Of a stretch of 50,141 nt of DNA, positions 19,795 through 47,100 are shown piece after piece (the first letter of the stretch is position 1; each line of letters begins with the position of its first letter). The translations under genes were made by a program, and so were the position numbers. Source of the DNA: Eledone cirrhosa. Lineage: Eukaryota. The stretch is taken from positions 1-50,141 of the forward strand of contig CAXHJY010000735.1 of the NCBI GenBank assembly GCA_964016885.1. The letters are read 5' to 3'. Below the pieces are notes generated by a model that did not search any database, had not been told where the DNA came from, and saw nothing but the letters and a program-made list of their open reading frames with translations.

Positions 19795-19825
<31 letters not shown>

Positions 19826-20827: not shown

Positions 20828-20935
20828 ATTAAAACTGCCCATCAGAATTGAGTAAAATAATTAATATTGAGTATGTAAACAGATGCAGTGGTTTTATGAG
20901 TTATGCCTGGTTTTCAATGTTTACACAGGTTGGAC

Positions 20936-21214
20936 CAGTGATTCTCAAATAGGAGGCATTTGGATCCCATGGGAGGAATCCAAACTGGGAAAGAATAGTA
21001 TATATTGTGTATATATTAAATGAAAAAAACAATAACCCAACTATGCGGGAGATCACGAATTAACACTTAACAAAAAACTGCTGTTTCAGACAAAATCTCA
21101 TTTACTGTGGTGTTCAGGGTGAAAAATAACTAGATGATAATTTAAATTAGGAGGAATTGAGGAAACCTGGGATTGCAAAGGGAGGAATATGACCTAAGTC
21201 TCTGAGAACCACTG
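20936..21214. mobile_element. hAT (Charlie-type) MITE
   Basis: TIRs CAGTGATTCTCA / TGAGAACCACTG; flanking 8-mers ggttggac / ggctggat (6/8 match) fit an aged 8-bp TSD. Confidence 0.65.
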
Positions 21215-21711
21215 GGCTGGATAAAGCCTGGAGCATAGAGTTTCATGGGCATTAGAGTACAAGATTCCTCAACAATCAAAACCTTAATCAATCCCAAGCT
21301 GCTTTTGCTCCTTTTCAGCTGAGTGAAATGGAGTAACATGAAATCAGGTGCTCTGCTCACAGACATAATGTACCACTCATTCTAAGAATCAACTCCATGG
21401 CTTTATGATGGTGAGCTGAACAATCTAATCACTAGCCCATGCACCTTCAGTCTGTACAGTAACTGCATTTAATTACTACATCCTGTCTTGTTTAATTAGT
21501 AAAAGCTCTAATTAATTATATAGATGAAGTAAACTGAAGAATTTAAATTAATTAAAATTAACATTCTTGGTGATGAGAAGAATACTTTTTATAGAATTGG
21601 GGTCACTTTGTTCTTATAAAACAAGTATTTCAGGGTATTTTTCCCCAGCCATTTTTATTAATTTATAATACTCCTCCTATGTTCATTCACAAAAATTCTA
21701 TATACTATTGG

Positions 21712-21992
21712 TGCAGGCATGGTTGTGAGGTTAAGAAGGTTTCAGGTTTGGTCTGTCTACCAGTCTACCAGATTTATTTCACACGGTTGACCAGTACCTT
21801 GTGAATGAAACCTGTTGTATATACATACACGTGTGTGTGTGTGATTAGGTTTACTGTTTGCCTACATCCTGCAATTTCCTAGTTCGATAGAGATGAATAA
21901 AATATGTACCAGGTTTGACATGGAAAACTTAAAGCGCTTTAAGGTGATGTCGCAGCCTGGCCATAGCCTAATGACTGAAAGGAATAAAAGAA
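21712..21992 (+). mobile_element. Degenerate tRNA-derived SINE with internal (TG)n
   Basis: gcaggcatggttgtgaggttaagaag head; tail ...taatgactgaaaggaataaaagaat. Confidence 0.5.
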
Positions 21993-22485
21993 TATATCTG
22001 TAATCATTGTAAGATTTGCTGAAATGGTTAAATTGAGTTTTGCTGGGGAGGTTCAATGTGGTGTTACAAATCAGACACAAATCATATTGCATTTCCTATT
22101 TTATGAGATTTGGTTAATTTTAATTAAATTTCAGAGTTGTCTCTCTTGCCTTTTTTCAAAAATTAGAATTGTATATATGTATGAGGGTTTGCATCTTGCT
22201 TACATATGTATCTGCATTCTGCCAAGTGCATTTTATTGGAGTACCAGCACTAGGGAGGTTGTGATGTCCTTGACACAATTGAAGGGCCATCACAATCATT
22301 TGTTTGGCAAGCTCACTATGGCTGGATGCCCTTCCTATCACCAGCTGCTTTACAGCGTTTACTAGATGCGTTTCTTGTGTAGATCACCAACACTACAACA
22401 GTTACAGGTGGCGCGCCGTTTGAAGAACTCGCTGTTACGAGGTCTGTTTCGTTTGAGTTGTATTCCAGTGTTGAGAGTGTGCAGA

Positions 22486-22639
22486 GTGTAAATGTGGTTG
22501 GTGTTAGGAAGGGTTTCCAGCCATAGAAAACCTGCCAGACAGTCCTATACAAGCGAGACGACCAATCTTGTCTCAAGTGGGACAATTCCCATCTAGACCC
22601 ATGCTAGCGTGGACGATAGACGTTAAACGATGATGATGA
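22486..22639 (+). mobile_element. RTE 3'-end fragment with (GAT)n tail
   Basis: tgtaaatgtggttggtgttaggaaggg...cccatgctagcgtgg...cgttaaacgatgatgatg matches the RTE 3' ends; further 3' tips at ~22850-22910 (-) and ~24767-24808 (+). Confidence 0.85.
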
Positions 22640-23324
22640 AAGGTTGAGGTCAGTGTTGCAGCGTATATATACTAACATTGATCCATACAAGTTGACCTGA
22701 TGTTATATTTTCATACATAATAGAGACGGTTGAATGGCCATTGATTCAAACAATAGCAATCCTTTCATGACACTAGAAGCTAGACATAAAAAATACAATA
22801 CGGTCTTGGCTATTTAATCTTTCTATCTTTGTGTGCGTATGTGTATCATCATCATCATCACCATTTTACGTCCGTTCTTCCACGCTAGCATGGGTTAGAC
22901 GGGTTGTCCTGTTGTGGGCAGTAGCCGGTCGGCTGACCATGCCTTGCTCATACAGGAACCACACACACACACACACATATATATGTATATATATATAGAG
23001 AGAGAGATTTAAAAGAGTCGAAGTCAAATGTTGCAGCATATGTACAAACTTTAATTGCATATTACAATTGTTTTGATATCAATCATGGATCTGCTCTTCA
23101 GACTAATTCAACAGAAAATAGTGTTTGTATTGTATTTTCTGTTGAATCCCTGTGAAATGTGCGTAATAGGTTGATGCATAATAAAAACCTCTATGTAAAT
23201 GAAAGTTTATCGCTTTTCTATATATATATATATAGATAGATACATAAATATATATATGCATAGAAGAAATTGAGAGGTAGAGTGCCAATTATATAAACCT
23301 TTTACAGTCACAGGAAGGATCCAT

Positions 23325-23901
23325 AGACGTAGTTGATAGCTTCTGCTATCTAGGTGACCTACTTAGCAGTGGAGGAGGGTACACCGAGAGTATAATAACT
23401 AGAATAAGGATAGGATGGAAGAAGATTAGAGAACTGTTCCCACTGCTGACAACAAAAGGTTTCTCTCTATGTATAAAAGGCAGGCGGTATGACGTTTGTG
23501 TGCGGTGCATGAAGCTGCATGGTAGTGAAATATGGGCTATGACAGCAGAGGACATGTGCAAACTGGAGAGAAAAGCTGAGCTTGGATGAGCTGAGGAGAA
23601 GCTGGGTTTAAGGAGAATCCGAGATAGTGTGCTGGAGAGAAGACTGCATTGGTGTGGACATGTGATGTGCATAGACAGTGACCGATGGGTGAAGAAATGC
23701 CAGGAAATCCCAGTGGAAGGAAGCCACAGTAGGGTTTAACTAAGAAAGACCTTGGAAGAGGTTGTGAAAGCTGGTCTCAAATTGCTAAGACTGGCAGTGG
23801 AGAAGATGAAGGAAAGCGACAAGTAGAGAGATGTCATGCTGAGAAGGACCTGTCCAACCCATGCAAGCATGGAAAAGCAGTCGTAAAAATGATGATGATG
23901 A
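23325..23901 (+). mobile_element. Old degenerate RTE LINE 3' fragment
   Basis: VVDSFCYLGDLLSSGGG...RIRIGWKK and RRLHWCGHVM; ends with cccatgcaagcatgg...gatgatgatg. Confidence 0.85.
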
Positions 23902-24051
23902 CATACTTATGAAATATATATATATGATATATAAATATATATCATCATCGATCATCATCATCATTGATTAACGCCTATCTTCCACGAATATATATACAGA
24001 GAGATAGATAAATAGATTGATAGAGAGATACATACATCTATACATATATAT

Positions 24052-24720
24052 ACTGGGTGTACCAGCAAAGTTGTCCAAATTTTAGATCAACTTCGAGCCT
24101 CTGTATATCAGGTATGCTTAAAGATAACTTAATGGAATTTTCAGAGGTTTTCTAACACTATTGGACTCTACTTTGAGCAAGAGAAATGTTGATTACTCTC
24201 CAAGCTCACCAGAAAAATTTGTGATAAAGTTGATCAACAGTTTCCAATTGGGCTTAAGTCAGGACTTGAATCTGGCAAAGGTGCCAGCACTTCAATCCCA
24301 AATTCTCATATAATACATGTTTGCATTTATAGTTTTTCCTGCTGGAATTATGGTCAGTACAGCTTATCCCTTTATGCTTACTGATTCACAGATCATCAAT
24401 GATTGTGAATGTTTAACTGTTGGTTTGACATAACGAGAATCATAATGCTATCCTGGTGGTTTTCTTATATGGTGATTACACGGGGCAAACAGTCTAATTA
24501 ATGTTTCATCACTAAACATTACCTCACTCCATTGAGCAGCAGTCCAGTGATGATAAGTGATGCAGAACAATGGACGGTCCTTGATTCTTCTATTTGAAAA
24601 ATGAGGCTTAACACAGTGTTGTTGGATGGTAGATGACGTGTGTGTCTTGAGGAAGTTGGTCTTAGATATATGAGCTGGAAGCATTTGGATTTGACACTGC
24701 AAATCGGTGTATCATGTGAT
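24052..24720 (-). mobile_element. Tc1-like transposon remnant
   Basis: Minus-strand HWTAAQWSEVMFSDET matches the first-Asp motif W..V.FSDE of the Tc1 DDE domain; left end follows TA. Confidence 0.7.
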
Positions 24721-24728
24721 CTGTTTGA

Positions 24729-24761
<33 letters not shown>

Positions 24762-25664
24762 CATATCCATGCTAGCGTGGAAGATAGACGTTAAACGATG
24801 ATGATGATACATATACATACATATATTTATACATATATATATATACATATACATACTTTAACACTCATATATACATATATATGAGTGTTAAAGTCTGTTT
24901 CAAACACAGAGGCTCATCAAGCTAGATCTCACCTCACTTTAATTGATATTGACTCAGAGAAAAAATACTATCTAGACAAAGTTCCAGTCTGTTGCAGAAT
25001 CCCAGCTGATGCTGGTACTCATTTTTTCCAGTGGACAGGAGCAACATTAAAATGAAATGTCTGCTTCAAGAATACAATGTACCACATGGTCCGTGAAACA
25101 TACTCATGATCTTACAATCGTGAAACCACTACGCTAACCACTAGGCTGTGTGACATCACTGAACTACTGAGTGCATGTATATTTATATTGATTATTTTCA
25201 TGCCACTGCCATAATTTCATGGGTGTTTAATAATGATCTTGAAATTATTTTGATATAATTATACATACATGTTTTCCTGTAACCATAGAAATTGATATAT
25301 ATGTAATTCACATGATATTGTGTAATTCATATGTATTAATTAATTAATGGATTAATTAGTTTATAGAAGTGCCCTAAGTGCACTATTACTCTATTATATA
25401 TATGTAAATGTTAACAGATTTGAATGCATGCATATGTGTGTGTATATAAGTATGTTGATGTCTGTCTATATACATATTTCCTTTCTAAGCAGAAAAGTGG
25501 CAGTGACTTCAAACTCACTGCCACTTTACTGCGAATATATAATTCTACTCTACCCACCATTATAGAATGCTCATTTAGTTAATGTTTGAAGGCTTTAAAT
25601 ACTATGGTATTTTAAACACATATCCAAACATATATATATATATATATACATACATACATATTCT

Positions 25665-26141
25665 CTAAGACAATGTCACTGGATTGAAAACTTTGGCGCT
25701 ACCCAGTAATACAGAAGACCTGTCTTCCCTTACATACAAAGTTAAACCTACAGTCAGTAGGCACCTCTTAACCAAATATAGACCCCAACCCACTATCTCT
25801 ACTCCATCCTCCCACTTCCACCCACACCACCCTTTCTTTGTAAAGTTATGTTGGTACCACAGAACATCCAGTCCACACTAAAGTGGTCGTGTAGGTGTCA
25901 CAACAAAAAGCACCCAGTTCATGCTTTAAAGTGGTCATGTAGGAGATATTCTAAAAAGGCTCCCAGTCCACACTGTAAATGTGGTTGGTGTTAGGAAGGG
26001 CATCCAGCCGTAGAAAACCTGCCAGATACAGTCCTATATGAGCGAGACACGGTCACCCGATCAATCTTGTCTTAAGTGAGACAATTCCCGTCTAACCCAT
26101 GCTAGCGTGGAAGATAAACGTTAAATGATGATGATGATGAT
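25665..26141 (+). mobile_element. RTE 3' end and 3' UTR fragment
   Basis: ctctaagacaatgtcactgga... through the UTR repeat units to the (GAT)n tail; lies tail-to-tail with the next element. Confidence 0.85.
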
Positions 26142-26159
26142 ATATATATATATATATAT

Positions 26160-27043
26160 CATCATCATCATTTTACGTCCGCTCTTCCCTGCTTGCAAGG
26201 GTGGGACGGATCTTATTCAACACAGCATCTCTCCACTTGTCACAGTCCTTCGTCATCTCCACCGTGAGCTTCAGCGATCTGAGGTCTGTTCACACCACCT
26301 CCGCCCATGTTTTTCGTGGTCTACCTCTACCACGTCTTCCTTCAACTGGCATTTCCTGGCACCTCTTCACCCATCGGTCATCCTCCATGTGCATCACATG
26401 TCCATACCACCTCAGTCTCCTCTCCCGTACACTACATTCTATCCCTCTCAGACACAGTTTCTCTCTCAACACATTCATGCTGGGTCATTCACGCACATTG
26501 ACACTGCACATCCAACGGAGCATGCTTGCCTCATTTCACTCCAGCCATCACATATCCTCTGCAGTTGCTGCCCATGTTTTACTACCATGCAGCATCGCGC
26601 TCCTCACACAGGCATCCTATAACACAGGGAGAAACCCTTCTTCGTCAACAGAGGAAGCAGCTCCATAAACTTCTTCCAACCCATCCTTATTCTAGATACT
26701 ATGGCCACAGAACACCCCACTGCCATGCTAATCTGATCTCCTAGGTACCGGAAGCTATCCACCACTTCTATAGCACCTGCATGCATTTGAAAAATGTGTC
26801 TATCAATGCGACTTCTACTGTCTAATTTCCCTGTACATCTACTGCATACATATTTCTCCCTACCTGTTAGTTTGCCTGCTATCCCGCTACATCTCTTGTG
26901 TACCCAGGATCTGCTTTGTGTGCATTTTATAGAATTTATGCCAGTTCCTTTTCTGCATATCGAACATGGCCATTCCCTGACGGAATCAGAGTTTTATCCT
27001 CTTTTCTACTCATCAACACTTTTGTCTTAGCTAGGTTCACTCT
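26160..27043 (-). mobile_element. 5'-truncated RTE LINE, divergent subfamily
   Basis: Minus-strand WPCSICRKG...WVHKRCSGI, IEVVDSFRYLGDQIS, RRLRWYGHVMHM, GRPRKTW; tail seen as (CAT)n at 26160-26171. Confidence 0.92.
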
Positions 27044-27200
27044 CTCATATATATATATATACATATAACAAAGAAGGTGTGGTAAGATACCAGGTGGACC
27101 ATAAAGCACCAGAGTACTGCTGGCTTAGTTCAGATCTCTACATAGAAAAATAGTTAGGACCCTGATGGCTGAGCTCCGGCTGTTTATATATATATATATA

Positions 27201-29143
27201 GTAACTATAGAGGCATTAAATTAATCGACCAGGTCATGAAGGTCACGGAAAAAGTAATAGCGCAACTAATCAGAGAGAGAATTGATCTAGATGAAATGCA
27301 GTTCGGATTTGTGTCAGGCAAAAGTACCACAGACGCTCTTTTCATTGTACGACAACTACAGGAGAAGTACCTAGCTAAAAGTAAACCTCTATACTTAGCT
27401 TTCGTCGACTTGGAGAAAGCCTTCGACAGAGTCCCCCGTTCCATTATCTGGTGGGCTCTTAGAAAACTAGGTGTTGACGAATGGCTTGTGAGGGCTATAC
27501 AAGCCATGTATAAAGAAACAGTCAGTAAGGTTAGAATTAACAACGAATATAGTGAAGAGTTTAGCGTAAAAGTTGGTGTCCATCAGGGCTCTGTTCTTAG
27601 CCCCCTACTATTTATTATTGCCCTTCAGGCTATAACAGAGGAGTTCAAGACCGGCTGCCCATGGGAACTCCTATACGCAGATGATCTAACGCTCATAGCT
27701 GAATCAATGACCGAACTAGAGAAGAAATTCCAAACATGGAAGCACGGCCTAGAATCAAAAGGCCTTAAAATTAACCTGGCTAAGACTAAAGTTCTAGTTT
27801 GTAGGAAAGAAAATAAGGCGGCAGTCCCATCTGGGAAATGGCCATGCTCAGTGTGTAGGAAAGGCGTAGGTAGAAACTCCATTTTATGTCCCAAATGCAA
27901 AGTATGGGTGCATAAAAGATGTAGTGGGATCACAGGTAAGCTAACTAAGAACATAGATTTTACATGTGGCCGGTGCTCTGGTGCAATAAGTAGCAGCAAG
28001 TGCTCACAAAATACTAGCTCCTTCAACTGCGCAGAGGGTTCTATAGAAATAGTGGACAGCTTCCGTTACCTGGGTGACAAAATCAGCAGTGGGGGAGGGT
28101 GCTCTGAAAGTACAGTAGCTAGAGTCAGAACTGGATGGAAAAAGTTCAGAGAGCTTATACCACTATTAGCCGCTAGAGGGTTCTCCCTAAAAATGAAAGG
28201 CAGGTTATACGATGCCTGCATACGAACAGCAATGCTGCATGGCAGTGAGACCTGGGCATTGTGTGCAAAGGATATACGCAGACTAGAGAGGAACGAAGCT
28301 TGCATGCTCCGCTGGATGTGCAATAGTAATATACGTGAACGGCAAAGCATAAACGAACTAAGGAAAAAATTAGAAATAAGAGGGATCAGATGTTGTTTAC
28401 TCAAGAGAAGGCTACGTTGGTACGGTCACGTGATGCGCATGAAAGACGACAGCTGTATAACAAAGTGCAGGGCAATAAAGATAGACGGTAGCCACGGAGT
28501 AGGCAGACCCAGAAAAACATGGGACGAGCTGATAAATTCCGACCTCACACGCTTACACCTCTCCAAGACAATGTCACTGGACCGAGACCTTTGGCGGTAC
28601 TCAGTAATAGAGAAGACCCGCCTTACCTAAATACAAAGTAAAAACCTACTACAGTCAATAGGAATCTCTATCAAACCCCCCCCCCCCCCCCCCGTCACAC
28701 CACCTCCACCCCATCCACACCGCCCCTTTCAATGTAAAGTTATGTTGGTCCCACAACATCCAGGCCGAAACAAATGAGATCGTGTAGGTGTCACGACAAA
28801 AAACACACAGTCCACGCTGTAAATGTGGCCGTGTAGGCAACACGATAAAAAACTCCCAGCCCCACACTGTAAATGTGGTTGGTGTTAGGAAGGGCATCCA
28901 GCTGTAGAAAACCCGCCAGACAGTCCACGCTGTAATGTGGCTGTGTAGGCAACACGGTAAAAACCTCCCAGCCCCACACTGTAAATGTGGTTGGTGTTAG
29001 GAAGGGCATCCAACTGTAGAAAACCCGCCAGACAGTCCTATGCGAGCAAGACAACCACTCTTGCCTCAAGTGGGAAAACCCCCGTCCAAACCCATGCAAG
29101 CGTGGAACACGGACGCTAAACCTGATGATGATGATGATGATGA
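27201..29143 (+). mobile_element. 5'-truncated RTE LINE with an uninterrupted RT C-terminal ORF
   Basis: Starts immediately after (TA)n; ~119-bp duplication in the 3' UTR; (GAT)n tail followed by (TA)n. Confidence 0.96.
27236..28630 (+). CDS. RTE reverse transcriptase (N-terminally truncated, 464 aa) containing a C4HC3 PHD-like finger
   Basis: QFGF, FVDLEKAFDRVP, GVHQGSVLSPLLF, LLYADD, FRYLG, RRLRWYGHV, GRPRKTW. Confidence 0.9.
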   Translation: MKVTEKVIAQLIRERIDLDEMQFGFVSGKSTTDALFIVRQLQEKYLAKSKPLYLAFVDLEKAFDRVPRSIIWWALRKLGVDEWLVRAIQAMYKETVSKVRINNEYSEEFSVKVGVHQGSVLSPLLFIIALQAITEEFKTGCPWELLYADDLTLIAESMTELEKKFQTWKHGLESKGLKINLAKTKVLVCRKENKAAVPSGKWPCSVCRKGVGRNSILCPKCKVWVHKRCSGITGKLTKNIDFTCGRCSGAISSSKCSQNTSSFNCAEGSIEIVDSFRYLGDKISSGGGCSESTVARVRTGWKKFRELIPLLAARGFSLKMKGRLYDACIRTAMLHGSETWALCAKDIRRLERNEACMLRWMCNSNIRERQSINELRKKLEIRGIRCCLLKRRLRWYGHVMRMKDDSCITKCRAIKIDGSHGVGRPRKTWDELINSDLTRLHLSKTMSLDRDLWRYSVIEKTRLT

Positions 29144-29341
29144 TATATATATATATAGAGAGAGAGAGTTAATTCCATAATAATTAACAAACTATATTTG
29201 AGGATACATGTTTCACCTAAAAGGTTTATTCAATTCATGTATGGTTATAGCAAGTCTTTTGGACTGAGTACTCTACCAATTTTAGATATGTCCTGTGGAT
29301 TTTTCACTCACTATACGTATGTATGTATGTATGTATGTATG

Positions 29342-29930
29342 TCAGGTCACTCCTGGGTGCTACTGGTAACATGTAACCCAGTACAACCTGTTCCCTGGTC
29401 GGGTCATCGGCGACTAAACTGGCAACCCCACCAGGCTTGCTTGATGAGGAGGGTGATTATTTGTCATCATGCAGGACGAAAAACAAAACCTGTCAAAGGG
29501 TGGAGGAACTCGTGTGAGTCAACGGCCATCCATTAGTATGTACATATGCGGGTTGCAGTCAGGTCTGGTTGTTCTGGTTTCCCTGGATTGTCCTGCTACT
29601 GGCTACCATGCAACCCTGCCACATTGGGCCATATGGAGGTTGTTAGCCTTGGCAAGTAGCCCATCTAAGAGAAGGAAAACTCTGAATCCAAACCTCCACC
29701 GCCTTGCGGTGATATCCAATCATGAGAAGGCTTCAGGAGTAAACCTTGTGGAAAAATCTGGAGTCATTCATTACAACTTCATTCTGGCAGCTCCTGGGAC
29801 AGTGCTACTGCCAAACTGTAGCAGCCTCGCTGCTCCTTTGGATCCAGCAGCGTTGTGGAGAGGGGAGACATGCTGCATGGGCAACATCCTGTCCTCTAAA
29901 TCACATCACACAGGCTTTATCCAGCCACTC
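29342..29930 (+). mobile_element. Non-coding repeat resembling an RTE 5' UTR
   Basis: Contains ctaagagaaggaaaactctgaatccaaacc, a motif I recognise from RTE 5' UTRs and derived SINE bodies; possible HDV-like fold at its 5' end. Confidence 0.45.
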
Positions 29931-29951
29931 CATTCTATGCATGTATGTATC

Positions 29952-29990
<39 letters not shown>

Positions 29991-30659
29991 CAGGAGCAAA
30001 GGGTCCATGTATGCAACTCATGTAATGCATGCCTTGGTTTCTTTCTTCCTAGGATAGATAAAATTTGTTTAATATAAAATTTTCCTTGTTGGCTAAAACA
30101 CACACACACTCTCTCACAAACACTACATTTCCTATTTATTCTACTGTTTCTGTCATTCATCTCAACCTACAGATAAATAAGCATGCAATAGTTTCTTTGC
30201 TTGCGGAAAAACGCACACACTCACAAACACTACCTACATTCCATCTCGATTTTACTCTTTTTTTCTGTCATTCACTTCGACCAACAGATACTAAAGAAAC
30301 TTCATATACCCTATATCATCAGTGGGCAAGGGAGCTGAATTCCTGTGGTGAAGGGTAACTTGGAAAGCAGGGCATGCAGTCCAATTGCCATCGCAGAGAG
30401 TGGTGCTGTGGAACCTTATTCTACCACTTCGCAAAATTATTTGTCGTCCTCTCCTCCATTTGTAAATCTGATATGAACTAATTTTAAAGTCAGAAAATGC
30501 ACTTCTACCAACAGACTACACTTCAGGCTTGACACCTCTCTCCACTAGACTTGATCACTCCCCATTAGTAATAGCCTGGCGATGAACCTGTCATCATATT
30601 GGTTACGTGAGAAATATGAGTAAATAATATAACCTTCAAATAATGAATTATTTAAAATT

Positions 30660-31400
30660 TCTTTGTAAATCAGTTCAATTCTTCATTTCTTTTTCGCAAA
30701 TTCATTCATAGCTTTACTATAAAATGTATCAGCACCACACTCTACCTTCATCTTCTTCAAAAGGTTTTTATTCATGGAAATGAAGACCAAATTGCTCAAT
30801 CTCTCTTCACTTTGAGAACACCTCATATAATTATTTACTTGCTTTAATGAAGAAAACGATCTCTCATATGGAGCAGGTATGGTCAGAATCAGGTGTAATA
30901 ATTTTGTTACTTCTGCCAGAGCTTTATTTAGTTGATGTTCCCATAATACGTCTGCGACTTCCTGGATGCTTGACGCTTGCTTTGCAAAATTTGCAGCATA
31001 AACTAATTTCAGCTCGCATTTCAATCCATCCAAATCCAATATGTTTAAATAGATATCCAAAAATGAAAATGCTTCCATCGGAAACATGAAGAAGCTTCGG
31101 ATTCACCAATTCAACAAATCTGAACTCTTCCATGGATTTAAATCTTTACTGAACGTGAACAATAACTTCATCCAAAATGTTGTTAAACGAAGTTCTTAAA
31201 ACAGCTTCTGGTTCTTGATATTGACCATGCTTCTCCTCCTGTGGTTCAGCAACACCACCCAGAACCCAGCAGTAAAATTACTCAAACTTGTTTTTGATAT
31301 CAACCAATTGTTTCTGGAAGTTTTCAAACTCATGAAAGCATCTGCAAATATCAAATGAACTTTTTTGAAGGATCGAAAACAGAATTTCTGACCCACTCAA
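30660..31400 (-). pseudogene. hAT transposase C-terminal (dimerisation) fragment
   Basis: KLLHLILTIPA..ERSFSSLKQVNNYMRCSQSEERLSNLVFIS; frameshifted. Confidence 0.85.
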
Positions 31401-31444
31401 TATAGTTTCAAAAACTACTAATAAAAAATTTGGTATATAGAAAG

Positions 31445-32700
31445 GATAACAGGGCCCAGATTCCCTCAGGGAAATGGCCTTGTTCAGTGTGCAGGAAAGG
31501 AGTAGGTAGAAATTCCATCCTATGCCTGAAAGCAAACTATGGGTACACAAGAGATGTAGTGGGATTTCAGGTAGGCTAGCAAAGAATGCAGGTTTTATAT
31601 GTGGTCATTGCACAGGTGCAATAAGTAGCAACAGCTCACAGGATACTAATTCCTTTAAACGCCCAGATGGTTCGGCAGAAGTAGTTGATAATTTCTGTTA
31701 CCTGGGTGATCAAATTAGCAATGAAAGTGGGTGTGCCGAAAGTATTGTAGCTAGAGTGAGAATGGGATAGAGAAAGTTCAGGGAGCTACCACTGCTGCTA
31801 ATCACAAAAGGTTTTTCCATCAAAATGAAGGGCATATTGTATGATGTGTGTATACGAACAGCAATGTTGCATGGCAGTGAGACCTGGGTGCTGTGTCAGA
31901 TGACCTACAAAGATTGGAAAAAAATGAAGCTTCCCTGCTTCGATAGATGTGTAATATAATATAAATGAACAGCAAAGCATAAATGAACCGAGAAAGAAAC
32001 TGGGCATAAGAGGTGTCAGATGCAGTGTGCAGGAGAGGAGATTGCATTGGTGTGGGCATGTGATGCCTATGAAGGATGACAGCTGTATAAAAAGGTGCAG
32101 AGGACTCAAAGCTGATGGAAGCTATGGTCTAGGAAGACTTGGGATGAGGTGGTAAAAGCTAACCTTGCACAATTGGACCTCTCGAAAGCAATGACACAGG
32201 ATTGAGATCTCTGGCGTTGTACAGTAATACAGGAGACCCACCTTCCAATGTGCACAGGTTGAAGCATACATCTTGTATGTACTACCTCCCCCTCTCACTT
32301 CCATACACCTCCACATGATAACACCCCTCCTTTCATCCAAGTCCCTCCCCCTCTTGCACACTGCACTCATGCTTGAACACTCAATGCTAGATCTACCTCC
32401 CCAATCCCTACACACCTGCCTCACAAATCCAAGTCCCCAGGCTGCACTGTAAAGTGGCAGTGATGGCGACACGACAAAAAGCACCCAGCCCACACTGTAA
32501 AGTGGTCATGTAGGTGTCATGACAAAATGCACCCAGCACATACTGTAAATGTGATTGGTGTTAGGAAGGGCATCCAGCCATAGAAACCAAGCCAAAACCA
32601 GTCCTGTATGAGCAAGACATAGTTTCTGACTTGGTTTGTCTCCCAACGAGGCAATTCGTCTAAATCATGCTAGTGTGAAAAAATGGACGTTAAACGGTGA

Positions 32701-32704
<4 letters not shown>
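31445..32704 (+). mobile_element. Degenerate RTE LINE 3' part (with PHD-like insert)
   Basis: WPCSVCRK, WVHKRCSGISG, EVVDNFCYLGDQIS; 3' UTR repeat units and a short GAT tail. Confidence 0.9.
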
Positions 32705-32730
<26 letters not shown>

Positions 32731-32735
<5 letters not shown>

Positions 32736-34590
32736 CGTGAGGTGTTCAGGATTGCTAGGCAATGCGTCAAGGAAAACCGTGATATTGTCGGGGAGAAGTG
32801 TGTACTTAACGATGATGGCATACTTGCCATCACCGACACTGATAAGAAGGTAGCTTGGAAGTGTCACTATGAAAGGCTACTAAATGAGGAGAATAAATGG
32901 GAGAAAGACAGTCTCCCCCATATCGACCCAATAGAGGGACCAGCAGTGTTAGTCGAGGGGAGTATAATAAGTAAGGCAATCAAGGATATGAAGACAGGTA
33001 AGGCGGCTGGGCCTTCGGAAATAGTTGCTGAGATGCTGAAGGCATCTGGCATGGTGGGACACACCATGGTCACTCGCATAGTTAACCATGTCGTACAGAA
33101 TGGGGTTGTTCCGAAGGACTGGCATAGCAGCATCATCGTTAACTGTTATAAGGGTAAAGGAGACGCCCTAGATAGGAGTAACTATAGAGGCATTAAATTA
33201 ATCGACCAGGTCATGAAGGTCACGGAAAAAGTAATAGCGCAACTAATCAGAGAGAGAATTGACCTAGATGAAATGCAGTTCGGGTTTGTGTCAGGCAAAA
33301 GTACCACAGACGCTCTTTTCATAGTACGACAACTACAGGAGAAGTTCCTAGCTAAAGGTAAACCCCTCTACTTAGCTTTTGTCGACTTGGAGAAAGCCTT
33401 CGACAGAGTCCCCCGCTCCATTATCTGGTGGGCTCTTAGAAAACTAGGCGTTGACGAATGGCTTGTGAGGGCTATACAAGCCATGTATAAAGAAACAGTC
33501 AGCAAGGTTAGAATTAACAACGAATATAGGGAAGAGTTTAGCGTAAAAGTTGGCGTCCATCAGGGCTCTGTTCTCAGCCCCCTACTATTTATTATTGCCC
33601 TTCAGGCTATAACAGAGGAGTTCAAGACAGGCTGCCCATGGGAACTCCTATACGCAGACGACCTGACACTCATAGCGGAATCAATGGCCGAGCTAGAGAA
33701 GAAATTCCAAACATGGAAGCACGGCCTAGAGTCAAAAGGACTTAAAATTAACCTGGCTAAGACCAAAGTTCTAGTTTGTAGGAAAGAAAACAAGGCGGCG
33801 GTCCCTTCTGGGAAATGGTCGTGCTCGGTGTGTAGGAAAGGCGTAGGTAGAAACTCCATTTTATGTCCTAAATGCAAAGTATGGGTGCATAAAAGATGTA
33901 GTGGGATCACAAGTAAGCTAACTAAGAACATAGATTTTACATGTGGCCGGTGTTCTGGTGCAATAAGTAGCAGCAAGTGCCCACAAAATACTAGCTCTTT
34001 CAAAGGCTACGTTGGTATGGACACGTGATGCGCATGAAAGTCGATAGATGTATAACAAAGTGCAGGGCAATAAAGATAGACGGTAGCCACGGAATAGGCA
34101 GACCTAGAAAAACCTGGGACGAGCTGATAAACTCCGACCTCACACACTTACACCTCTCCAAGACAATGTCACTGGACCGAGACCTTTGGCGGTACTCAGT
34201 AACAGAGAAGACCCGCCTTGCCAGTAGGCATCTCTAACAAACTACACCCCGTCCCGCCACCACCCCCACCCCATCCACACCACCCCGTTCCATGTAAAGT
34301 TATGTTGGTGCCGCGCCATCCAGGCCGAAACAAATGAGATCGTGTAGGTGTCACGACAAAAAAACACACAGTCCACGCTGTAATGTGGCCGTGTAGGCAA
34401 CACGGTAAAAACCTCCCAGACCCACACTGTAAATGTGGTTGGTGTTAGGAAGGGCATCCAACTGTAGAAAACCTGCCAGACAGTCCTATGCGAGCAAGAC
34501 AATCACTCTTGCCTCAAGTGGGACTACCCCCGTCCAAACCCATGCAAGCGTGGAACACGGACGTTAAACGTTGATGATGATGATGATGAT
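32731..34590 (+). mobile_element. 5'-truncated RTE LINE with an internal deletion
   Basis: ORF 32742-34028 (KAAGPSEI, NYRGIKL, FVDLEKAFD, LLYADD, PHD-like insert); ~380-bp deletion at ~34004 relative to the 27.2-kb copy; (GAT)n tail. Confidence 0.96.
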
Positions 34591-34981
34591 ATAGATATGT
34601 GTATCCCGGGTTCAATCGGGGGTAACCACAGTCAGTAAGGTACTCAATACATAGCCGAGTTTAAATATTTAATATAGAAATGGCTTCTACAGGACTAGAA
34701 CTGTTTCATTCAAAGGAAATCATCAAGAATAATATCAAAATAATATGCCATGTGAGTTTACACACACACACACACATATATATATACACCTGTCTTAATG
34801 CTTCAACAATAAGCTTTCCAATCTGATGTTAATCAACAGTAAATGTTGATTTTTGCTGCATGAAATGGTACCATATTGGCAATGTGCAAAACTCAGTGGT
34901 CTTGAATTTTTAGCCCTAATTCTCTGATAGAGCAATCATGATTGTTATAGATTATATATCAATTTCTTTTTATATATATAT

Positions 34982-34983
<2 letters not shown>

Positions 34984-35064
<81 letters not shown>
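34984..35064. repeat. (CA)n microsatellite
   Basis: Seen directly in the sequence. Confidence 0.97.
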
Positions 35065-35068
<4 letters not shown>

Positions 35069-35124
35069 TGTGTATATATATATATATGCATGCATACACA
35101 TATATATGTATGTATATATATATA

Positions 35125-35345
35125 TCATCATCACCGTAAAACGTCCATTTTTCCATGCTAGCATGGGTTATACGGGTTGTCCTATTTGAGGCAAGTTGGT
35201 TCAGAACTGTTTCTGGCTGGTTTCTATGGCTGGATGCCCTTCCTAATGCCAACCATATTTACAGTGTGTGCTGGGTGCATTTGATGTGACACCTACACAA
35301 TCACTTTACATTGTGTGCTGGGCGCATTTTGTCGTGTCACCATAT
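35125..35345 (-). mobile_element. RTE 3' UTR / tail fragment
   Basis: Reverse complement of cacactgtaaa...ggcattaggaagggcatccagcc...cccatgctagcatgg...gatgatg. Confidence 0.8.
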
Positions 35346-35924
35346 GGTGAGCCCATAAAATGTAGGTATTTGGGTGAGTGTGCATATATGTGGGTTTTTG
35401 TGTGAGTATGCATATTTGTACTTGTAAGTGAGCATATGTGTGTGTGTGTATATACATATATGTGTATACACAGCACACAAAAACAAGATGGTGTAAGACA
35501 GAACAAAGAAGAGACACAAAATAAAAAAAACCCAGTCACTGAGGTCATAGAATGTGCGATGAAAGAGCTTCAACATATAAACACCCATCAGTTATTGAAC
35601 CAACCAACCAGCCAACCAATCAGAAATTTATAATAAATTGAAGTGAAAACCAACAGGTGCATGTGTTTTCATTGGCAGCATGACCCTCCCAAAGTATAAC
35701 AATATCTGTTTCAATAACGTTTTCAGATAAGAAATCTTGCAAAACAAATTCAAAAACATAATCGGAATGTTTTCAACCTAAAGTTAACCGAGTACTCTCA
35801 CACTTATCTATAGCATCTGAATAGCAGGAGATTGTTACTGTGTGTACTATTAGTTTCTAATATTTAAAAACCAAACCAAATGAAACCCACCCAACACACC
35901 CATCTGACTATTATTATGGACCTA

Positions 35925-36612
35925 CAGAAAGCACAATGTTGGTGACATGATAGAAGGCACTCAATCCATCCTGTAAAGTGGGCGTGTTGGCTCCATGACA
36001 GAAGGCACCTGGCTTTCCCTCGGGTGTCGGCAGGTTGGTGACATGACAAAAGCACACAGTCCACCCTGCAGTGTGGTTGTGTTAGTGACTAAACAATAAA
36101 TGTCCAACCCACCCTGTAAAGTGGTCATGATGGACTCATGACAAAAGCACCCAATTCAACCTGTAAAGGAGTTGTGATGGAAAAAATGGCTGTTCTGGTG
36201 CCAAGTACCAGACCATACTGTTAAGATGTCGCTCAGGTGCCGTGACAAAAAGCGCTCAGTCCACACTGTAAAGTGGTCGTTTCAGTGCCAAAACAAAAAG
36301 CACCCAGTCCACACAGTAAAAAGGTTGTGTTGGTGACACAACAAAAAGCACCCAGTCCACACAGTAAAGAGGTTGTGTTGGTGACAACAAAAAGCACCCA
36401 GTTCACACTGTTAAATGGTTGTTTTGGTGCCACAGTAGAGGGCAGCTAGTTCACTGTAAATGTAGTTGGCCTTAGGAAGGGCATCCAGTTGCAGAAACCA
36501 AATCAGAAGGAGTTCTGTATGAGCAAGACACGGTCATCTAACCTGACTTGTCGCAGAACAGGACAACTTGTCTAGCATGGAAAATGGACGTTAAACTGTG
36601 ATGATGATGATG
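35925..36612 (+). repeat. Tandem array of ~53-bp RTE 3'-UTR units ending in an RTE tail
   Basis: About 10 degenerate copies of aaaagcacccagtccacactgtaaagtggt(c/t)gtg..ggtg.catgaca, followed by aggaagggcatccag...ggacgttaaac..gatgatgatg. Confidence 0.8.
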
Positions 36613-36689
36613 GTGATATAGGGGAAAAGGGAGAGATGGGTAGAGGGCGAACTTTACACTCTTGGGTGAATGGTATATTTCAGTTGTGC

Positions 36690-37100: not shown

Positions 37101-37292
37101 ATTGCTCTTGAGTGCTTTAATGATAAGGGCTTCAATCCTATCTTGCTGTTAGAGCTCATATCTATGCAGGTTTAGTCACATATTGATATATAATTAGACA
37201 AACGGATACACACATATATATATACACACACACGCACACACAGACAAATAAATAGGCAAACAGATAGAGAGAACGATAGATAAATAAACAGG

Positions 37293-37775
37293 AAAAATGA
37301 AATTTCATTTCTCACTCTTAGTACGGCTGATAAGTACGTATACGTACATACATGCACACATATATATATATGTACGTATGGGTTTACCGAACATTTATTA
37401 TAATGCTCGGTTTATTTGTAAACAAACAGCCCGATTATTAGCCGTACAGTATATGCAAATTAGGCTGCTCAGCCGTTAATATGCATAAGGAAAGTATATA
37501 CTTTCAAATGTTTAATCAACTGACAGGAAGGTATACAGTGCTGATGACAGCTAATAAGCTAGAAACTAGTTCATCGTTCCTTTGTCAGTGTTGAACAAAT
37601 AGGGCAGCGATGGTTGCCGAACACTGTACGGCTAATAATTCGGGCTGTTTGTTTACAAACAAACTGAGCATTATAATAAATATTCGGTAAACTCATACGT
37701 ACATATATATATGTGTGCATGTATATACATACTACTGTACGTCTGTAACATATATGTATCTACGTATACATACTT
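37293..37775 (+). mobile_element. Retrozyme-like insertion (420-bp family) with a 5' inverted arm and 17-bp TSD
   Basis: TSD atagataaataaacagg at 37276-37292 and 37776-37792; inverted arm 37293-37450; forward arm 37451-37775 homologous to ~11668-11990. Confidence 0.85.
37535..37577 (+). ncRNA. Type I hammerhead ribozyme
   Basis: acagtg-CTGATGA-c-agct-aata-agct-a-GAAA-CTAG-TT-catcgt; stem I has one mismatch. Confidence 0.75.
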
Positions 37776-37895
37776 ATAGATAAATAAACAGGCATAGATA
37801 AATAGACAGATCGAGCGATCAATAGATAGATGGGGAAGAGGGTCCACGACGAGAGACTAATAGATAAGAGAATAATGAAAACAGAAACCGAGAAA

Positions 37896-38058
37896 TAATT
37901 GTTTCTAATTTAGGCACAAGGCCAGCAAATACCCAGTGCATTACTGGTACTTTATTTTATCGACCCCGTAAGGATGAAAGGCAAAGTCAACCTCGGCGGG
38001 ATTTGAACTCAGATCGTAAAGGGACGTAACTATGCTGGAAAGCATTGCGTCCGACCCT
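37896..38058 (-). mobile_element. tRNA-derived SINE (abundant family)
   Basis: Same body and B box as 17159-17375. Confidence 0.85.
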
Positions 38059-38228
38059 GGGAGAGAGAGAATATCACATACCGACTTAAACGTACGATTG
38101 AAAACTCGGAAAAAAAAATAAAACAGGAAACTTTTTTACTTCACCCTGACAGGTGCTTTTTAATTTTTTTTTTTTTAATAAATTTAAACTCAGGTTTGCT
38201 TATTTGTAACTCCAAGCCTCGGCACTAC

Positions 38229-38619
38229 CATGCTATTAGCTGTCAGAAATGAAAGTTTCGTCAACCTTCTCAATCGTAAACATCGTTTATTTCCGTATTA
38301 CCACGCGTTTAATAAAGCATATCGATGTAAGTGGAGTTACTTAAATGAAAATATAGGTGGCCCTTAAAAGGGCCAAATTAGAAAACAAGTCATGGTTATC
38401 AAATAAATTGGATTTAATCATTATATTTTCATAGTCAAGGTTATCAATTTCATGTATAGGGTTGATGAAAAAAATTTGATAACCATATATTTGTTTTCTA
38501 TTTTGGCCCTTTTAAGGGCCACCTATATTCTCATTTAAGTAACTCCACAATACGGAAATAAACGATGTTTACGATTGAGAAGGTTGACGAAACTTTCACT
38601 TCTGACAGCTAATAGCATG
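38229..38619. repeat. Fold-back element / long inverted repeat (~145-175-bp arms)
   Basis: catgctattagctgtcaga...ggttatcaaat (38229-38404) mirrors atttgataacc...tctgacagctaatagcatg (38474-38619); the left arm carries an extra ~31 bp. Confidence 0.9.
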
Positions 38620-38878
38620 ACAGCTAATAGCCTCCATCCACAGTTTTCGGAAAAGAAGTCGTTTGCGAGTGGTCAGATTCGTACACGACAAAACCTTAAA
38701 AAGAAAACATCGAGGATGCGAGAACCCGAAGCCCTCCCCCATTTCCATTATCTGGGGGTGAAGGGTGAAGGGCGATTGTGAGTAAGTTGGAAGCCAGATT
38801 AGTTGAAAACACGAAAACACCTAAATAAAAATGCAATTTCTCACCGAACGGCAGAGAAGTGCTTTTCTAAAAATTTGC

Positions 38879-38921
<43 letters not shown>

Positions 38922-39210
38922 CAAATAACGAAACGAAATTAAATTTCGTTTCGTTTGTAACTCACTTTTGTATGACTGACGCTTAAACAATTAAGTTAAA
39001 AATGTACATCTACATATGCATACTGAAATACTAGTATGCATATGAATACACACACGTATACATATGTAGATGTACCAAGTCTTTCACTGGTTACTTTACT
39101 GTCAGTAATCCAGCTATTCTGTATGTAAACACACAGACAAACCGGTTTTTAGAGTCATACTGGTTTTCGAGGAAACACCTTTCCTCTATTCTCCAGAAAG
39201 CCAGACAAGG

Positions 39211-39255
39211 AATATTGAACTAGTTTCGTTGTTGTTACAACTCATCAGCAATATT
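39211..39255 (-). ncRNA. Type I hammerhead ribozyme (inverted copy)
   Basis: Exact reverse complement of 39913-39957. Confidence 0.88.
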
Positions 39256-39445
39256 TACCTATCTACCGGCCTTTCTGGAGAATCGTAAAAGCACATATCG
39301 TTATATGCTTTTTCTATGAAAATTAGTAGTGGGCAGACTAATTTGCATAGAGTGTGAGTACGTACCGGTTCAACGGAGACGATAAAAACAAATAACGAAA
39401 CGAAATGTGCTTTTACGATTCTCCAGAAAGGCCGGTAGATAGGTA

Positions 39446-39490
39446 AATATTTCTGATGAGTTGTAACAACAACGAAACTAGTTCAATATT
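39446..39490 (+). ncRNA. Type I hammerhead ribozyme (G>T at the first stem I pair)
   Basis: aatattt-CTGATGA-gttg-taacaa-caac-GAAA-CTAG-TT-caatatt. Confidence 0.8.
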
Positions 39491-39912
39491 CCTTGTCTGG
39501 CTTTCTGGAGAATAGAGGAAAGGTGTTTCCTCAAAAACCAGTATGACTCTAAAAACCGGTTTGTCTGTGTGTTTACATACAGAATAGGTGGATTACTCAC
39601 AGTAAAGTAACCAGTGAAAGACTTGGTACATCTACATATGTATACGTGTGTGTATTCATATGCATACTAGTATTTCAGTATGCATATGTAGATGTACATT
39701 TTTAACTTAATTGTTTAAGCGTCAGTCATACAAAAGTGAGTTACAAACGAAACGAAATTTAATTTCGTTTCGTTATTTGTTTTTATCGTCTCCGTTGAAC
39801 CGGTACGTACTCACACTCTATGCAAATTAGTCTGCCCACTACTAATTTTCATAGAAAAAGCATATAACGATATGTGCTTTTACGATTCTCCAGAAAGGCC
39901 GGTAGATAGGTA

Positions 39913-39957
39913 AATATTGCTGATGAGTTGTAACAACAACGAAACTAGTTCAATATT
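39913..39957 (+). ncRNA. Type I hammerhead ribozyme
   Basis: aatattg-CTGATGA-gttg-taacaa-caac-GAAA-CTAG-TT-caatatt: 7-bp perfect stem I, G-C-closed stem II, palindromic stem III, GUU cleavage site. Confidence 0.9.
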
Positions 39958-40740
39958 CCTTGTCTGGCTTTCTGGAGAATAGAGGAAAGGTGTTTCCTCG
40001 AAAACCAGTATGATTCTAAAAACCGGTTTGTCTGTGTGTTTACATACAGAATAGGTGGATTACTGACAGTAAAGTAACCAGTGAAAGACTTGGTACATCT
40101 ACATATGTATACGTGTGTGTATTCATATGCATACTAGTATTTCAGTATGCATATGTAGATGTACATTTTTAACTTAATTGTTTATATATATATATATATA
40201 TATATATACAGCTACTGAGAGAGAGAGAGAAAAGGACATCATGTATTAGAAGCTAGATAGAGAATGACAGGATATGTGTGACAAAAGAAGTAGAGACCTA
40301 GTGAAATAGAGTGAATGAGTAAGTGTGTGTGACAGAGAAAATGAGAAAAAGAGAGAGAGAGAGAGTGTGTGTAAGACTAAACACGAGACGGATAAAGTCT
40401 AAGAGATGAACTTGTTCAGTACAAACTCAAACAAGCTGTATGTGTACTCCTATAATAAAATTCTACTTCACACGCTTTCTCTCTCTCTTCCACAAACACA
40501 CATATATACTACACACACACACGTATATATATTTATACTAATTTACACACACACACATACATATATATACAAACACAATGCGTATATATACGTACACATC
40601 CCACAGACAGGCTGACGTAGATATTTGAAAATAGGAATGTAAACATAGATGTCTATATATATATATTTATATATAAACATATAGGTAATGGTATACATAC
40701 ATCATGTTTAAGTATATAACTAAAAAAAAAACAAAAAAAC

Positions 40741-42686: not shown

Positions 42687-44022
<1,336 letters not shown>

Positions 44023-44036
44023 CCCCCCCCCCCCCC

Positions 44037-45603
44037 CTCACCGCTTCCCACCTCATCGTCCGCACCCCCCGCACCCCCACCATCTACTTCCTCCCCAAAC
44101 TCCACAAACCCGACAACCCCGGCCGCCCCATCGTCTCCGCTTGCAACTGCCCCACCGAACTCATCTCCGCCTTTCTCGACCCCCTTGTCACCACCCTCCC
44201 CTCCCACATCTCCGACACCAACCACGCCCTGCGCCTTTTCGACTCCTTCACCTACCTACCCGGCCCACAGCCCTTCCTCTTCACCCTAGACATCAAGTCC
44301 CTCTATACAGTCATCCCCCACGCCGACGGCCTTCGCGCCCTCAAACACTACCTCGACCTTCGCCCCTCCCCCATTCCCTCCACCACCACCCTCCTTCGCC
44401 TCGCCGAGCTGGTCCTCACCCTAAATTGTTTCTCCTTCTCGGGTGAGTTTTACCAACAGGTCACGGGGGTAGCCATGGGCACAAGAATGGGCCCGAACTA
44501 TGCCAACCTTTTTGTTGGCCATGTTGAGGCCCAAATCATTGCCCAGTACACCGGCCCCACGCCCGAACTGTACGGTCGTTACATTGACGACTGTATCGGA
44601 GCCACGACCCTCACCCGAGAACAGCTCGACTCCTTTCTCTCCTTCTTCTGCTCCTTCCACCCCTCCCTCCACTTCACCACCTCTATCTCCACCACCCACG
44701 TCCACTTCTTAGACATCTCCGTCGCCTTCGACCCCTCCCACCACTCCCTCGTCACCTCCGCCTTCTTCAAACCCACCGACTCCCACGCTTACCTCGACTT
44801 CACCTCTTCCCACCCCACCCACACTAAACACTCCATTCCCTACTCCCAACTTCTCAGGATCCGCCGCCTCTGTAGCCGTGATGCTGACTTCGAGTCCCAG
44901 GCCCTTTCCCTACTCAGCCATTTCATCCGCAGAAGTTACCCCCTCTCTCTCGTTTACACCGCTCTCACCCACGCCCGTGCTGTCCCCCGCTCCACCACCG
45001 CACACCCACCCACCATCTCCCCTTCCCCATCACCTACCACCCCTCCACCGCCTCCAGTCCGACCCCTCCACCTCCCACATCTTCCCAACCCCACCACTCC
45101 CCTCCTTCAAAACGCGCATGCAATCTCTGCACCCTCCTCGTCCATAGCTCTCTACCCCCCAACCCACGCTCTGTTCCCCCCCCCCCGGTTCCTTTCCCTG
45201 TCCTAGGCCCCGCTGCAACACCTGTCCCCACATCACCAACACCACCACCTTCCAGGGTCCCAACGGCCACTCTCTTTCGGTCCGGCATGCCTTCCGCTGC
45301 ACCTCCTCCAACCTAGTCTACGGACTTCGCTGCACGGAGTGCATCGCGACTTATGTCGGATAGACGGGACGTCGCCTGGCGGACCGAGTCACGGAGCACC
45401 TCCGGGATATTCGTCTCGGGGGCAGTTCCCCCATCGCCCGCCACTTTGGTGGCCCTGGACACTCCGCACGCCATCTCACAGTCTGTGGCCTACTCCAGTG
45501 CCACGGAACACCCGCCCATCGCCTTACGGTCGAACAACGAACTATCTTCATCTTACAGACCCACACTCCCCCCGGCCTGAACTCCCCACCCTTATTCCTT
45601 TAG
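44037..45603 (+). pseudogene. Penelope-like RT and GIY-YIG endonuclease (disrupted)
   Basis: YFLPKLHKPDNPGRPIVS, LDIKSLYT, GVAMGTRMGPNYANLF, RYIDD, FLDI, KPTDSHAYL, SIPYSQLLRIRRLCS; after a frameshift CPRPRCNTC, NLVYGLRC..C..YVG*TGR (in-frame TAG at 45361), EH, PPGLN; stop at 45601-45603. Confidence 0.93.
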
Positions 45604-46983
45604 CGTTCGACCGCCCCCTCCCCCCACACTTATCCCCCACTAACACCACTAACACACCCCTCCTTTTCACCGCCCACCCCACACTAACAATACTAACACC
45701 TCCACTCCACCCCTCATCTGACCACCCTTCCCCAACTAACATACTAACATCCCTTCCCTCCCCTCTTCTCCCCCTCCTTATCACACGCACACACTTACAC
45801 CACCCACCCCACACGCAACTAACATCACTAACACCCCCAACCCCACGCACACGTACCCACGCACACCAACTCTACACACCCTACCACCACTAACCCCCAC
45901 TCACACCTGCATTCAACCCCTCCCCACCTCCCGTATACTAACACCCATTCACCAAACTACACACACACCAGTACACCACACTCCCTCCATAGAACCACAC
46001 ACACCCTTCTCTCCCCGCTCCACACTCACTCATCCCACTAACACCCCTACTAATACACACACACACACACACACCCTCCTCACTTCAACTTTCACACCTA
46101 CCCATCCTCGCCCCCTTACCATTCCACCGACTGCTGCTATGCCCTTCTGACCACCTCCCAGCACCAACAGACCACAGCACTCCCACTGCTGACCACTTCC
46201 TGTTGCGCGCGCACCCCACATCTCTCCTCTTCCGACCACCGCTTCATGGATTACCCACACGCAGAAATTGACTTATAACCAATCCTCCAAACATCCTTGG
46301 AACTTACCAACTTTTCAACCATCCTCTTACGTCATCACCTATATAACTCACCCACACACACACACACACCAAAAAAATTGACCAACAACCAATCCACTAA
46401 ACATCTTCGGAATTTACCAACTTTTCAACCATCCTCTTACGTAATCACCTATATAACTCACCCACACACACACCCCAAAAAAATTTTTTTTCTCCACACG
46501 CCACCCACACCACGCTTAAACCCCACACACACGTGCTTCCCACCACATATTTACACCCTCAGCCTCCTGATTCTTCTCCCCCCCACCCCCTATCCACACA
46601 CGCACAGACACTCCGACCTACAAAAACACCCCCCACACACACCTCTTCCTGAACATGCAACCCCGTTCTTCCCCCAACCCTTACTTTCACATACACACAC
46701 ACACGCACACACCACCTTCAGCCCTCCCCGCTCGGACACCCCCGTCTCCCTCTCCCCACTCCACCCGCCACCACCCCTACTCACCGCACACCCTTCCACC
46801 ACCTGTTTACCCCCCTTTTAATTTCAGTTTATTTTGATCATGCCTTTATTTTTAAATTTTCTCATTCCTTGTATTTTGATCATGCTTTATTTTTATTTTT
46901 TAACTTTATTTATTAATTTTTCATTCGCACCGTTTCCTTTCACTATATGTCTCTCCACCACTCCCCTACACACCTTTTGAACT

Positions 46984-47011
46984 CTGAGGAAGGGCTTATG
47001 CCCGAAACGTC
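46984..47011 (+). ncRNA. Minimal Penelope-type hammerhead motif
   Basis: CTGAGGA-A-GGGC-TTAT-GCCC-GAAA-CG-TC; stem I pairing is poor in this copy. Confidence 0.75.
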
Positions 47012-47100
47012 GTCCCCCACCTACCCCCACTCTCCTGAGCGTGAAATTAATAAACATTTATTGTACTGCCCCTGTTTTGTCCCTGTTCAAATTTTTCCAT

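Follow-up and report, generated by a model that had tools for sequence, protein, structure and literature searches.

The question raised by this locus is how a short sequence carrying a hammerhead ribozyme came to lie between two identical 17-mers, and which enzyme could have put it there. In the window, that is to say the whole stretch of 50,141 nucleotides which was analysed, the two copies of the 17-mer occupy positions 37276-37292 and 37776-37792 on the plus strand; the match does not continue beyond them in either direction, and the 17-mer has no further occurrence in the window on either strand. Between them lies an insert of 483 bp made of an inverted, 5'-truncated arm of 158 bp (37293-37450, minus strand) and of a forward arm of 325 nt, shorter than one monomer (37451-37775, plus strand). 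The preliminary description had reported this arrangement, and it is confirmed, with two qualifications given below: the duplication is exact, unique, non-extendable and placed at the boundaries of the insert. Its reading of the locus as a retrotransposition with target duplication is likewise supported by the exact, junction-anchored 17-mer. The expression "direct footprint" is too strong.

Both flanks of the insertion are a degenerate, AT-rich short repeat, and the right copy of the 17-mer lies within a part of it resembling a tetranucleotide repeat. When one copy of the 17-mer is removed, the longest stretch common to the two flanks is 8 or 11 bases. The last nine or so bases of the left copy also resemble the long 3' end of the element read on the minus strand (a microhomology), and in the right copy the family sequence runs on for 3 bases. 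Because of this resemblance on the left, the true stagger of the target cut may be anywhere between 8 and 17 bp. The GC content is about 0.36-0.41 in 2-kb windows, and no open reading frame of at least 100 aa overlaps 37276-37792. A search of sequencing runs listed 23 of them, 20 of which contained some part of the query and one at least half of its words; no RNA run is among the 23 listed, and the other organisms account for small shares only.

The two arms are alike from 37623 onward, with 77 matches, 4 mismatches and 1 gap over the non-simple part of about 81 nt. All 4 substitutions are transitions, which fits the neutral decay of an old insertion, and the inverted arm shows slippage-type deletions relative to the copy at 11.5 kb described below. 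The outer 45 nt or so of the inverted arm match the 3' tail of the family and have no counterpart in the forward arm, which ends at a short 3' site (37775), about 60 nt short of the long end of the family. Hence the earlier statement that the inverted arm duplicates forward-arm sequence is correct from 37623 onward and does not extend to this outer part.

The forward arm carries, at 37535-37577 (plus strand), a hammerhead of the canonical metazoan type I, with a helix I of 6 bp including one mismatch, the core, and helices II and III. The conserved core CUGANGA...GAAA...UH is found 6 times in the window where 0.11 matches are expected. We aligned the motifs at 37541, 11750 and 39920 (helix I of 6 bp, helix II of 4-5 bp, helix III of 2 bp): the core is invariant and 36 of the 39 helix cells are paired. 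Of the 13 pairs, 6 are changed on both sides; the slid controls give 23-47%. This means that the hammerhead announced in the forward arm is confirmed, its core being present and its helices covarying across three related copies. Two positions are unpaired in the 37-kb hammerhead. The first pair of helix II (G10.1-C11.1) is an unpaired C-A at 37 kb, U-U at 11.5 kb and G-C in the 39-kb family. Helix III, of 2 bp, bears a palindromic loop which is predicted to be able to pair between two hammerhead molecules, and cleavage is predicted after 37571 (GUU).

Folded alone, the 37-kb hammerhead has a z score of -1.71, which 9 of 200 shuffles matched; its minimum free energy structure differs from the active fold. 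It is undetected by Rfam at the gathering score and at E values up to 5. The 39-kb hammerheads match HH9 (E values of 1.5e-7 and 4.8e-5) without reaching the gathering score, and one of them (39453) has a changed closing pair of helix I. The microRNA matches which Rfam returns in the window are noise from TA/CA repeats, and the hammerhead-core pattern had 0 matches in the metagenome contigs. The accessible part of PMC4209133 states that the canonical metazoan type I hammerhead works as a dimer, and that the hammerheads of Penelope-like elements (PLEs) are of the minimal type while those of retrozymes are of the canonical type. Judging from its sequence, the 37-kb hammerhead, being single and damaged, is probably inactive and the copy dead.

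An octamer, ATGCAAAT, is found at 37453-37460 (plus strand) and is kept in all three retrozyme copies, where it precedes the hammerhead core by 80-100 nt. It occurs 4 times in the window (11670, 37453 and 39820 on the plus strand, 39341 on the minus strand), every time inside the retrozyme families. We take it to be a possible promoter element, perhaps part of an snRNA-type promoter. There may also be a link with an octamer of newt satellite 2, on which a literature search gave a single paper, an unrelated one.

A second copy of the 37-kb family, 84% identical to it, lies at 11526-12053 (plus strand). It is a partial direct tandem with a period of 420, which serves as the reference monomer; its terminal repeat is 108 bp long (107/108 identical) and it ends at the long site beside (AT)n. 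No target duplication is visible at this copy. Immediately to its left, at 11432-11525, there is a short imperfect tandem duplication. A related hammerhead family is represented by a young head-to-head insertion at 38915-40184 (arms on both strands), with a monomer of 467 nt and three hammerheads; its similarity to the 37-kb/11.5-kb family exceeds that of 100 shuffles out of 100. The inverted arm of this insertion measures 492 nt (1.05 monomers) and its forward arm 780 nt (1.67 monomers), the arms being 98.7-99.5% identical; (TA)n stands on either side, and a 69-nt tail is confined to the inverted arm. Its forward arm contains two hammerheads 467 nt apart, whereas the 37-kb copy has only one. 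The arrangement is therefore head-to-head in two of the three insertions and a direct partial tandem in the third. Compared with 30 crude shuffles apiece, the circular monomers of both relatives fold much better, but internal TA/CA repeats inflate this difference and we give it no weight. On their sequence features, the three copies can be assigned to the non-LTR retrozymes as defined in PMC7229834, with monomers of 420-467 nt. For a study of polymorphism or of cleavage, the insertion at 38915-40184 is a better candidate than the 37-kb locus.

The 3' ends of these insertions follow a simple pattern, seen in three insertions of a single window: 5 ends out of 5 fall at two aligned sites. The long site (3 ends) is that of the right end of the 11.5-kb copy and of both inverted arms; the short site (2 ends), 60 and 69 nt upstream of the long one, is that of both forward arms. 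With the two families aligned (the tail alignment scores above 500 of 500 shuffles), the short ends are 4-7 nt apart, and simple arithmetic gives about 3% for two random ends being this close. In both head-to-head insertions, at 37 and 39 kb, the tail is present on the inverted arm only. No poly(A) is found at the retrozyme junctions of the window, and neither the ends of the 37-kb copy nor the tandem junction of the 11.5-kb copy shows a repeat tail of the element's own. (TA)n adjoins two of the three copies and an AT-rich degenerate repeat the 37-kb copy. Since (TA)n is missing from the internal tandem junction and from the ends of the 37-kb copy, it is the target and not an RTE-type tail. 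The junctions display 2-9 nt of microhomology between target and template. In ungapped comparisons, other positions of the template match the 17-mer better than those at the junctions, and a longer gapped pairing at the 37-kb junctions is suggestive only.

We then placed the arms on the template. In the register of the 11.5-kb copy, the outer end of the inverted arm corresponds to the 3' end of the family (11625-11633) and the forward arm starts at 11668. The gap on the template from the end of the inverted arm to the start of the forward arm is 34 nt in this register and 85 nt for the 39-kb copy. On the tandem template the inverted arm derives from just upstream of the forward arm and the two arms do not overlap; their apparent overlap is a consequence of copying from a tandem or a circle. 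A multimeric or circular template is required, since the predicted cleavage site lies within the forward arm and the arms at 39 kb are longer than one monomer. Adjacent arms on a multimeric or circular RNA are the geometry of twin priming. Hence we rejected arm overlap as a diagnostic of PLEs, and with it the earlier argument that overlapping arms denote Penelope rather than L1 twin priming; the duplication and the inversion alone do not single out a PLE. As regards length, L1 duplications are given as 14-16 bp in the available text of PMC2912911, where about 30% of the insertions are 5'-inverted, these with microhomology, and the duplications of Adineta Penelope as 8-10 bp in that of PMC3846280. 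The 17-bp duplication is nearer to the L1 value than to the published Penelope lengths.

We consider it probable that the 37-kb copy is an old, decaying, non-autonomous hammerhead retrozyme which was inserted in trans by an endonuclease-bearing PLE. A PLE is favoured because of the two-site pattern of the tails, the lack of poly(A) and the (TA)n targets; the preliminary description had also proposed a PLE enzyme as the mobiliser, and this enzyme is still the likeliest one, on these grounds and not for the reasons then given. The process can be pictured as follows. Tandem copies would be transcribed and dimeric hammerheads would cut out monomers, which may circularise, as known retrozymes suggest. 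At an AT-rich site, the PLE enzyme would nick the two strands with a stagger of 8-17 nt; here the duplication is observed and the enzyme presumed. On the multimeric or circular RNA each free 3' end would prime a cDNA of its own; the long start site would serve one of them and the short site about 60 nt upstream the other (these being the positions at which the ends are found), and this priming would be helped by a pairing of 2-9 nt, the length of the microhomology present at the junctions. The two 5'-truncated cDNAs would then be joined head to head into the structure which we see, and the filling of the gaps would leave the duplication, together with a tail on one arm only.

Several published observations bear on this scheme, as far as the accessible portions of the papers go. 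PLE insertions with an inverted 5'-truncated copy, a tail of 30-40 bp often present at one end, and a bias towards (TA)n are described in PMC8557442. The anole PLE, once purified, cleaved both strands and extended them; it began synthesis at two internal sites, the distance between which equals the tail, and in vitro these start sites were non-homologous to the cut DNA (PMC11167929). Inverted pLTRs with duplications are reported in PMC3846280, where pLTRs alone are enough for mobilisation in trans. Against a PLE stand the absence of a sequence link to the PLE of the window, the canonical type of the hammerhead, and a tail and a duplication both longer than reported. Given the behaviour of the anole enzyme, the microhomology at the junctions would also count against it. 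As a more tentative proposal, which we consider possible and no better than that, a PLE dimer would prime two cDNAs, one per nick, on a single ribozyme RNA, multimeric or circular, at two fixed start sites separated by 60-70 nt, with the help of a short pairing between target and template in vivo; this one event would account for the duplication, the inversion and the tail on one side. If this were true, retrozymes with a canonical hammerhead would be a small-scale record of the PLE reaction, two-site PLE priming would replace self-priming as the origin of head-to-head PLE inversions, and there would be proof at the level of insertions that PLEs drive the mobility of retrozymes.

A broken PLE of the Neptune/Nematis type is located at 43980-47100 (plus strand), 6 kb from the 37-kb insertion. 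It comprises a reverse transcriptase (RT), a CX4CxxC linker, which marks Neptune/Nematis according to the available text of PMC8557442, and a GIY-YIG-like region. A minimal hammerhead occupies 46984-47011, and (TA)n flanks the element left and right. The RT is recognised by Pfam (E 3.5e-6) and placed by the Atlas, at 0.96, in RT plus HTH_animal clusters, with 0 matches among solved structures. The GIY-YIG call comes from motifs read by eye, the Pfam E value being just 0.31. A C-rich low-complexity stretch of about 1.3 kb separates the endonuclease region from the 3' repeat. This PLE shows that such enzymes are present in this genome, and it is a candidate partner at most: when its 3' region was compared with the two monomers on the forward strand, 44 of 100 and 17 of 100 shuffles reached the scores, and the retrozymes have no pLTR homology to this single PLE of the window. 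Pfam found PLE domains neither in the six frames of 9300-23300 nor in 20 selected open reading frames, the search outside 9300-23300 covering selected frames only.

Other elements populate the window. At 13900-17150 is what remains of an L1/Tx1-like LINE, including endonuclease, RT and zf-RVT domains, and a cluster of copies and 3' fragments of LINEs with RT and PHD finger, in both orientations, extends over 23200-36620; two of these copies are 95.6% identical (27200-28026 and 33177-34003). A SINE-like repeat of about 165 bp, unlike the retrozyme monomer, has several copies (37891-38058, 12620-12800, 17160-18930), one of them 100 bp downstream of the 37-kb insertion. The host is an animal; judging by the appearance of a SINE close by, it may be a cephalopod. 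A nested fold-back element with arms 97-100% identical is found at 38226-38631; each of its arms contains a match to Rfam RF00032, the histone 3' stem-loop (34 and 32.3 bits), and no histone gene is apparent.

The retrozyme RNA could instead have been moved by a LINE, either L1/Tx1-like or one of the RT+PHD LINEs of the window, through ordinary twin priming, the template being tandem or circular; we regard this as unlikely. The adjacency of the arms, with gaps of 34 and 85 nt, is what twin priming predicts, but the second priming is fixed at the long end of the family in both inversions instead of being scattered. The 17-bp duplication and the microhomology are those of 5'-inverted L1 (PMC2912911, in the part available); poly(A), on the other hand, is missing and the nick site is not TT/AAAA. 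LINE RTs do exist in the window, and the accessible text of PMC7229834 leaves "LINEs or PLEs" both possible. However, the monomer does not clearly resemble the SINE or the three LINE 3' regions of the window with which it was compared (1-50 of 50 shuffles reached the scores), and the (TA)n, missing at the tandem junction and at the 37-kb ends, is not the tail of an RTE.

An endonuclease-independent repair, in which plentiful retrozyme RNA was caught through microhomology at the two ends of a break with a long 3' overhang and copied by any reverse transcriptase, is improbable in our opinion. The 3' ends of the target can indeed be paired with the template (3 nt exactly, or 12/16 with gaps, on one side; about 8 nt with a bulge on the other), yet the junction positions are not the best template matches without gaps, and the two 3'-end sites are shared with insertions at different targets. 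A clean target duplication also fits staggered nicking better than the repair of a break.

It is still harder to believe in an inversion at the DNA level, in the fold-back self-priming of one cDNA, or in a MITE-like transposon with long inverted termini. Long inverted repeats do stand at both ends of the 37-kb insert, and self-priming has been proposed for PLE inversions in the available text of PMC3846280. But the inverted arm has a tail which the forward arm lacks and so cannot be a fold-back copy of it, the best palindrome at the inversion junctions of the 37- and 39-kb insertions has an arm of 3 bp, and the 11.5-kb copy has direct ends, the breakpoints varying among insertions without conserved terminal inverted repeats. 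On these three grounds (one-sided tail, 3-bp palindromes, variable breakpoints), fold-back and MITE-like origins were rejected. Finally, that the pair of 17-mers is a mere coincidence of low-complexity flanks and element-derived sequence is scarcely credible: the target does consist of a degenerate short repeat, and each 17-mer partly resembles the element, but the copies are identical over 17/17 bases, resemble it only partially and both stand at its boundaries, and a junction-anchored match of at least 17 arose by chance in 0, 4 and 399 of 20000 trials under Markov models of order 1, 2 and 3, all of them trained on flanks including the 17-mer itself and so generous to chance, the order-3 model being overfitted.

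With a PLE as the preferred mobiliser, the result can be set against what is known. The mobilisation of animal retrozymes by PLEs has already been proposed in print: Cervera and de la Pena (2020; PMC7229834) named PLEs as strong candidate mobilisers of metazoan non-LTR retrozymes in the text accessible to us, and the title of bioRxiv 10.64898/2026.07.22.740005 claims PLE mobilisation of hammerhead retrozymes. In its available part, the latter relies on co-occurrence and pLTR homology, mostly in vertebrates, whereas the present evidence is the anatomy of junctions. In the literature searched, supplements and most subscription papers aside, junction anatomy was not found as evidence for PLE-driven retrozymes, and it is a modest addition. 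Recently active Penelope-like families are reported in one octopus (PMC13282606, whose accessible part does not mention hammerheads), and a possible duplication at one schistosome repeat (PMC8490949, in part). The 37-kb locus alone, an old and probably inactive copy, changes nothing. So far, the arguments about which enzyme moves animal retrozymes have been built on co-occurrence and pLTR similarity, and there is no agreed account of how PLE inversions and tails arise. Since one genome can offer thousands of short retrozyme insertions with two fixed 3' ends, both questions become testable by junction statistics.

The following comparisons refer to the available portions of the papers cited. 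Like the retrozymes of PMC7229834, the present ones are dispersed partial tandems of a non-coding unit of low GC content (<50%), with one canonical type I hammerhead per unit and a target duplication longer than 4 bp. Their monomer of 420-467 nt exceeds the range of about 170-400 nt given there, and the word "inverted" is absent from the main text of that paper, whereas head-to-head arms are found here. With 5'-inverted L1 (PMC2912911) they share two primings from the two ends of the target, a duplication of 14-17 bp, microhomology and adjacent arms; they differ from it in that poly(A) and a TT/AAAA site are lacking and that both primings recur at fixed internal positions. From the endonuclease-bearing PLEs they are distinguished by the lack of an open reading frame, by a canonical and not minimal hammerhead, by the absence of a palindrome at the inversion point, by a tail of 60-69 nt instead of 30-40 (PMC8557442), by a duplication of 17 bp instead of the 8-10 bp of Adineta Penelope (PMC3846280), and by 3' junctions with microhomology, unlike those of the anole enzyme (PMC11167929). 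With these same PLEs (PMC3846280, PMC8557442, PMC11167929) they have in common the head-to-head inverted and 5'-truncated copy, the partial tandems, the tail at one end, the AT-rich or microsatellite targets, the target duplication and the action in trans.
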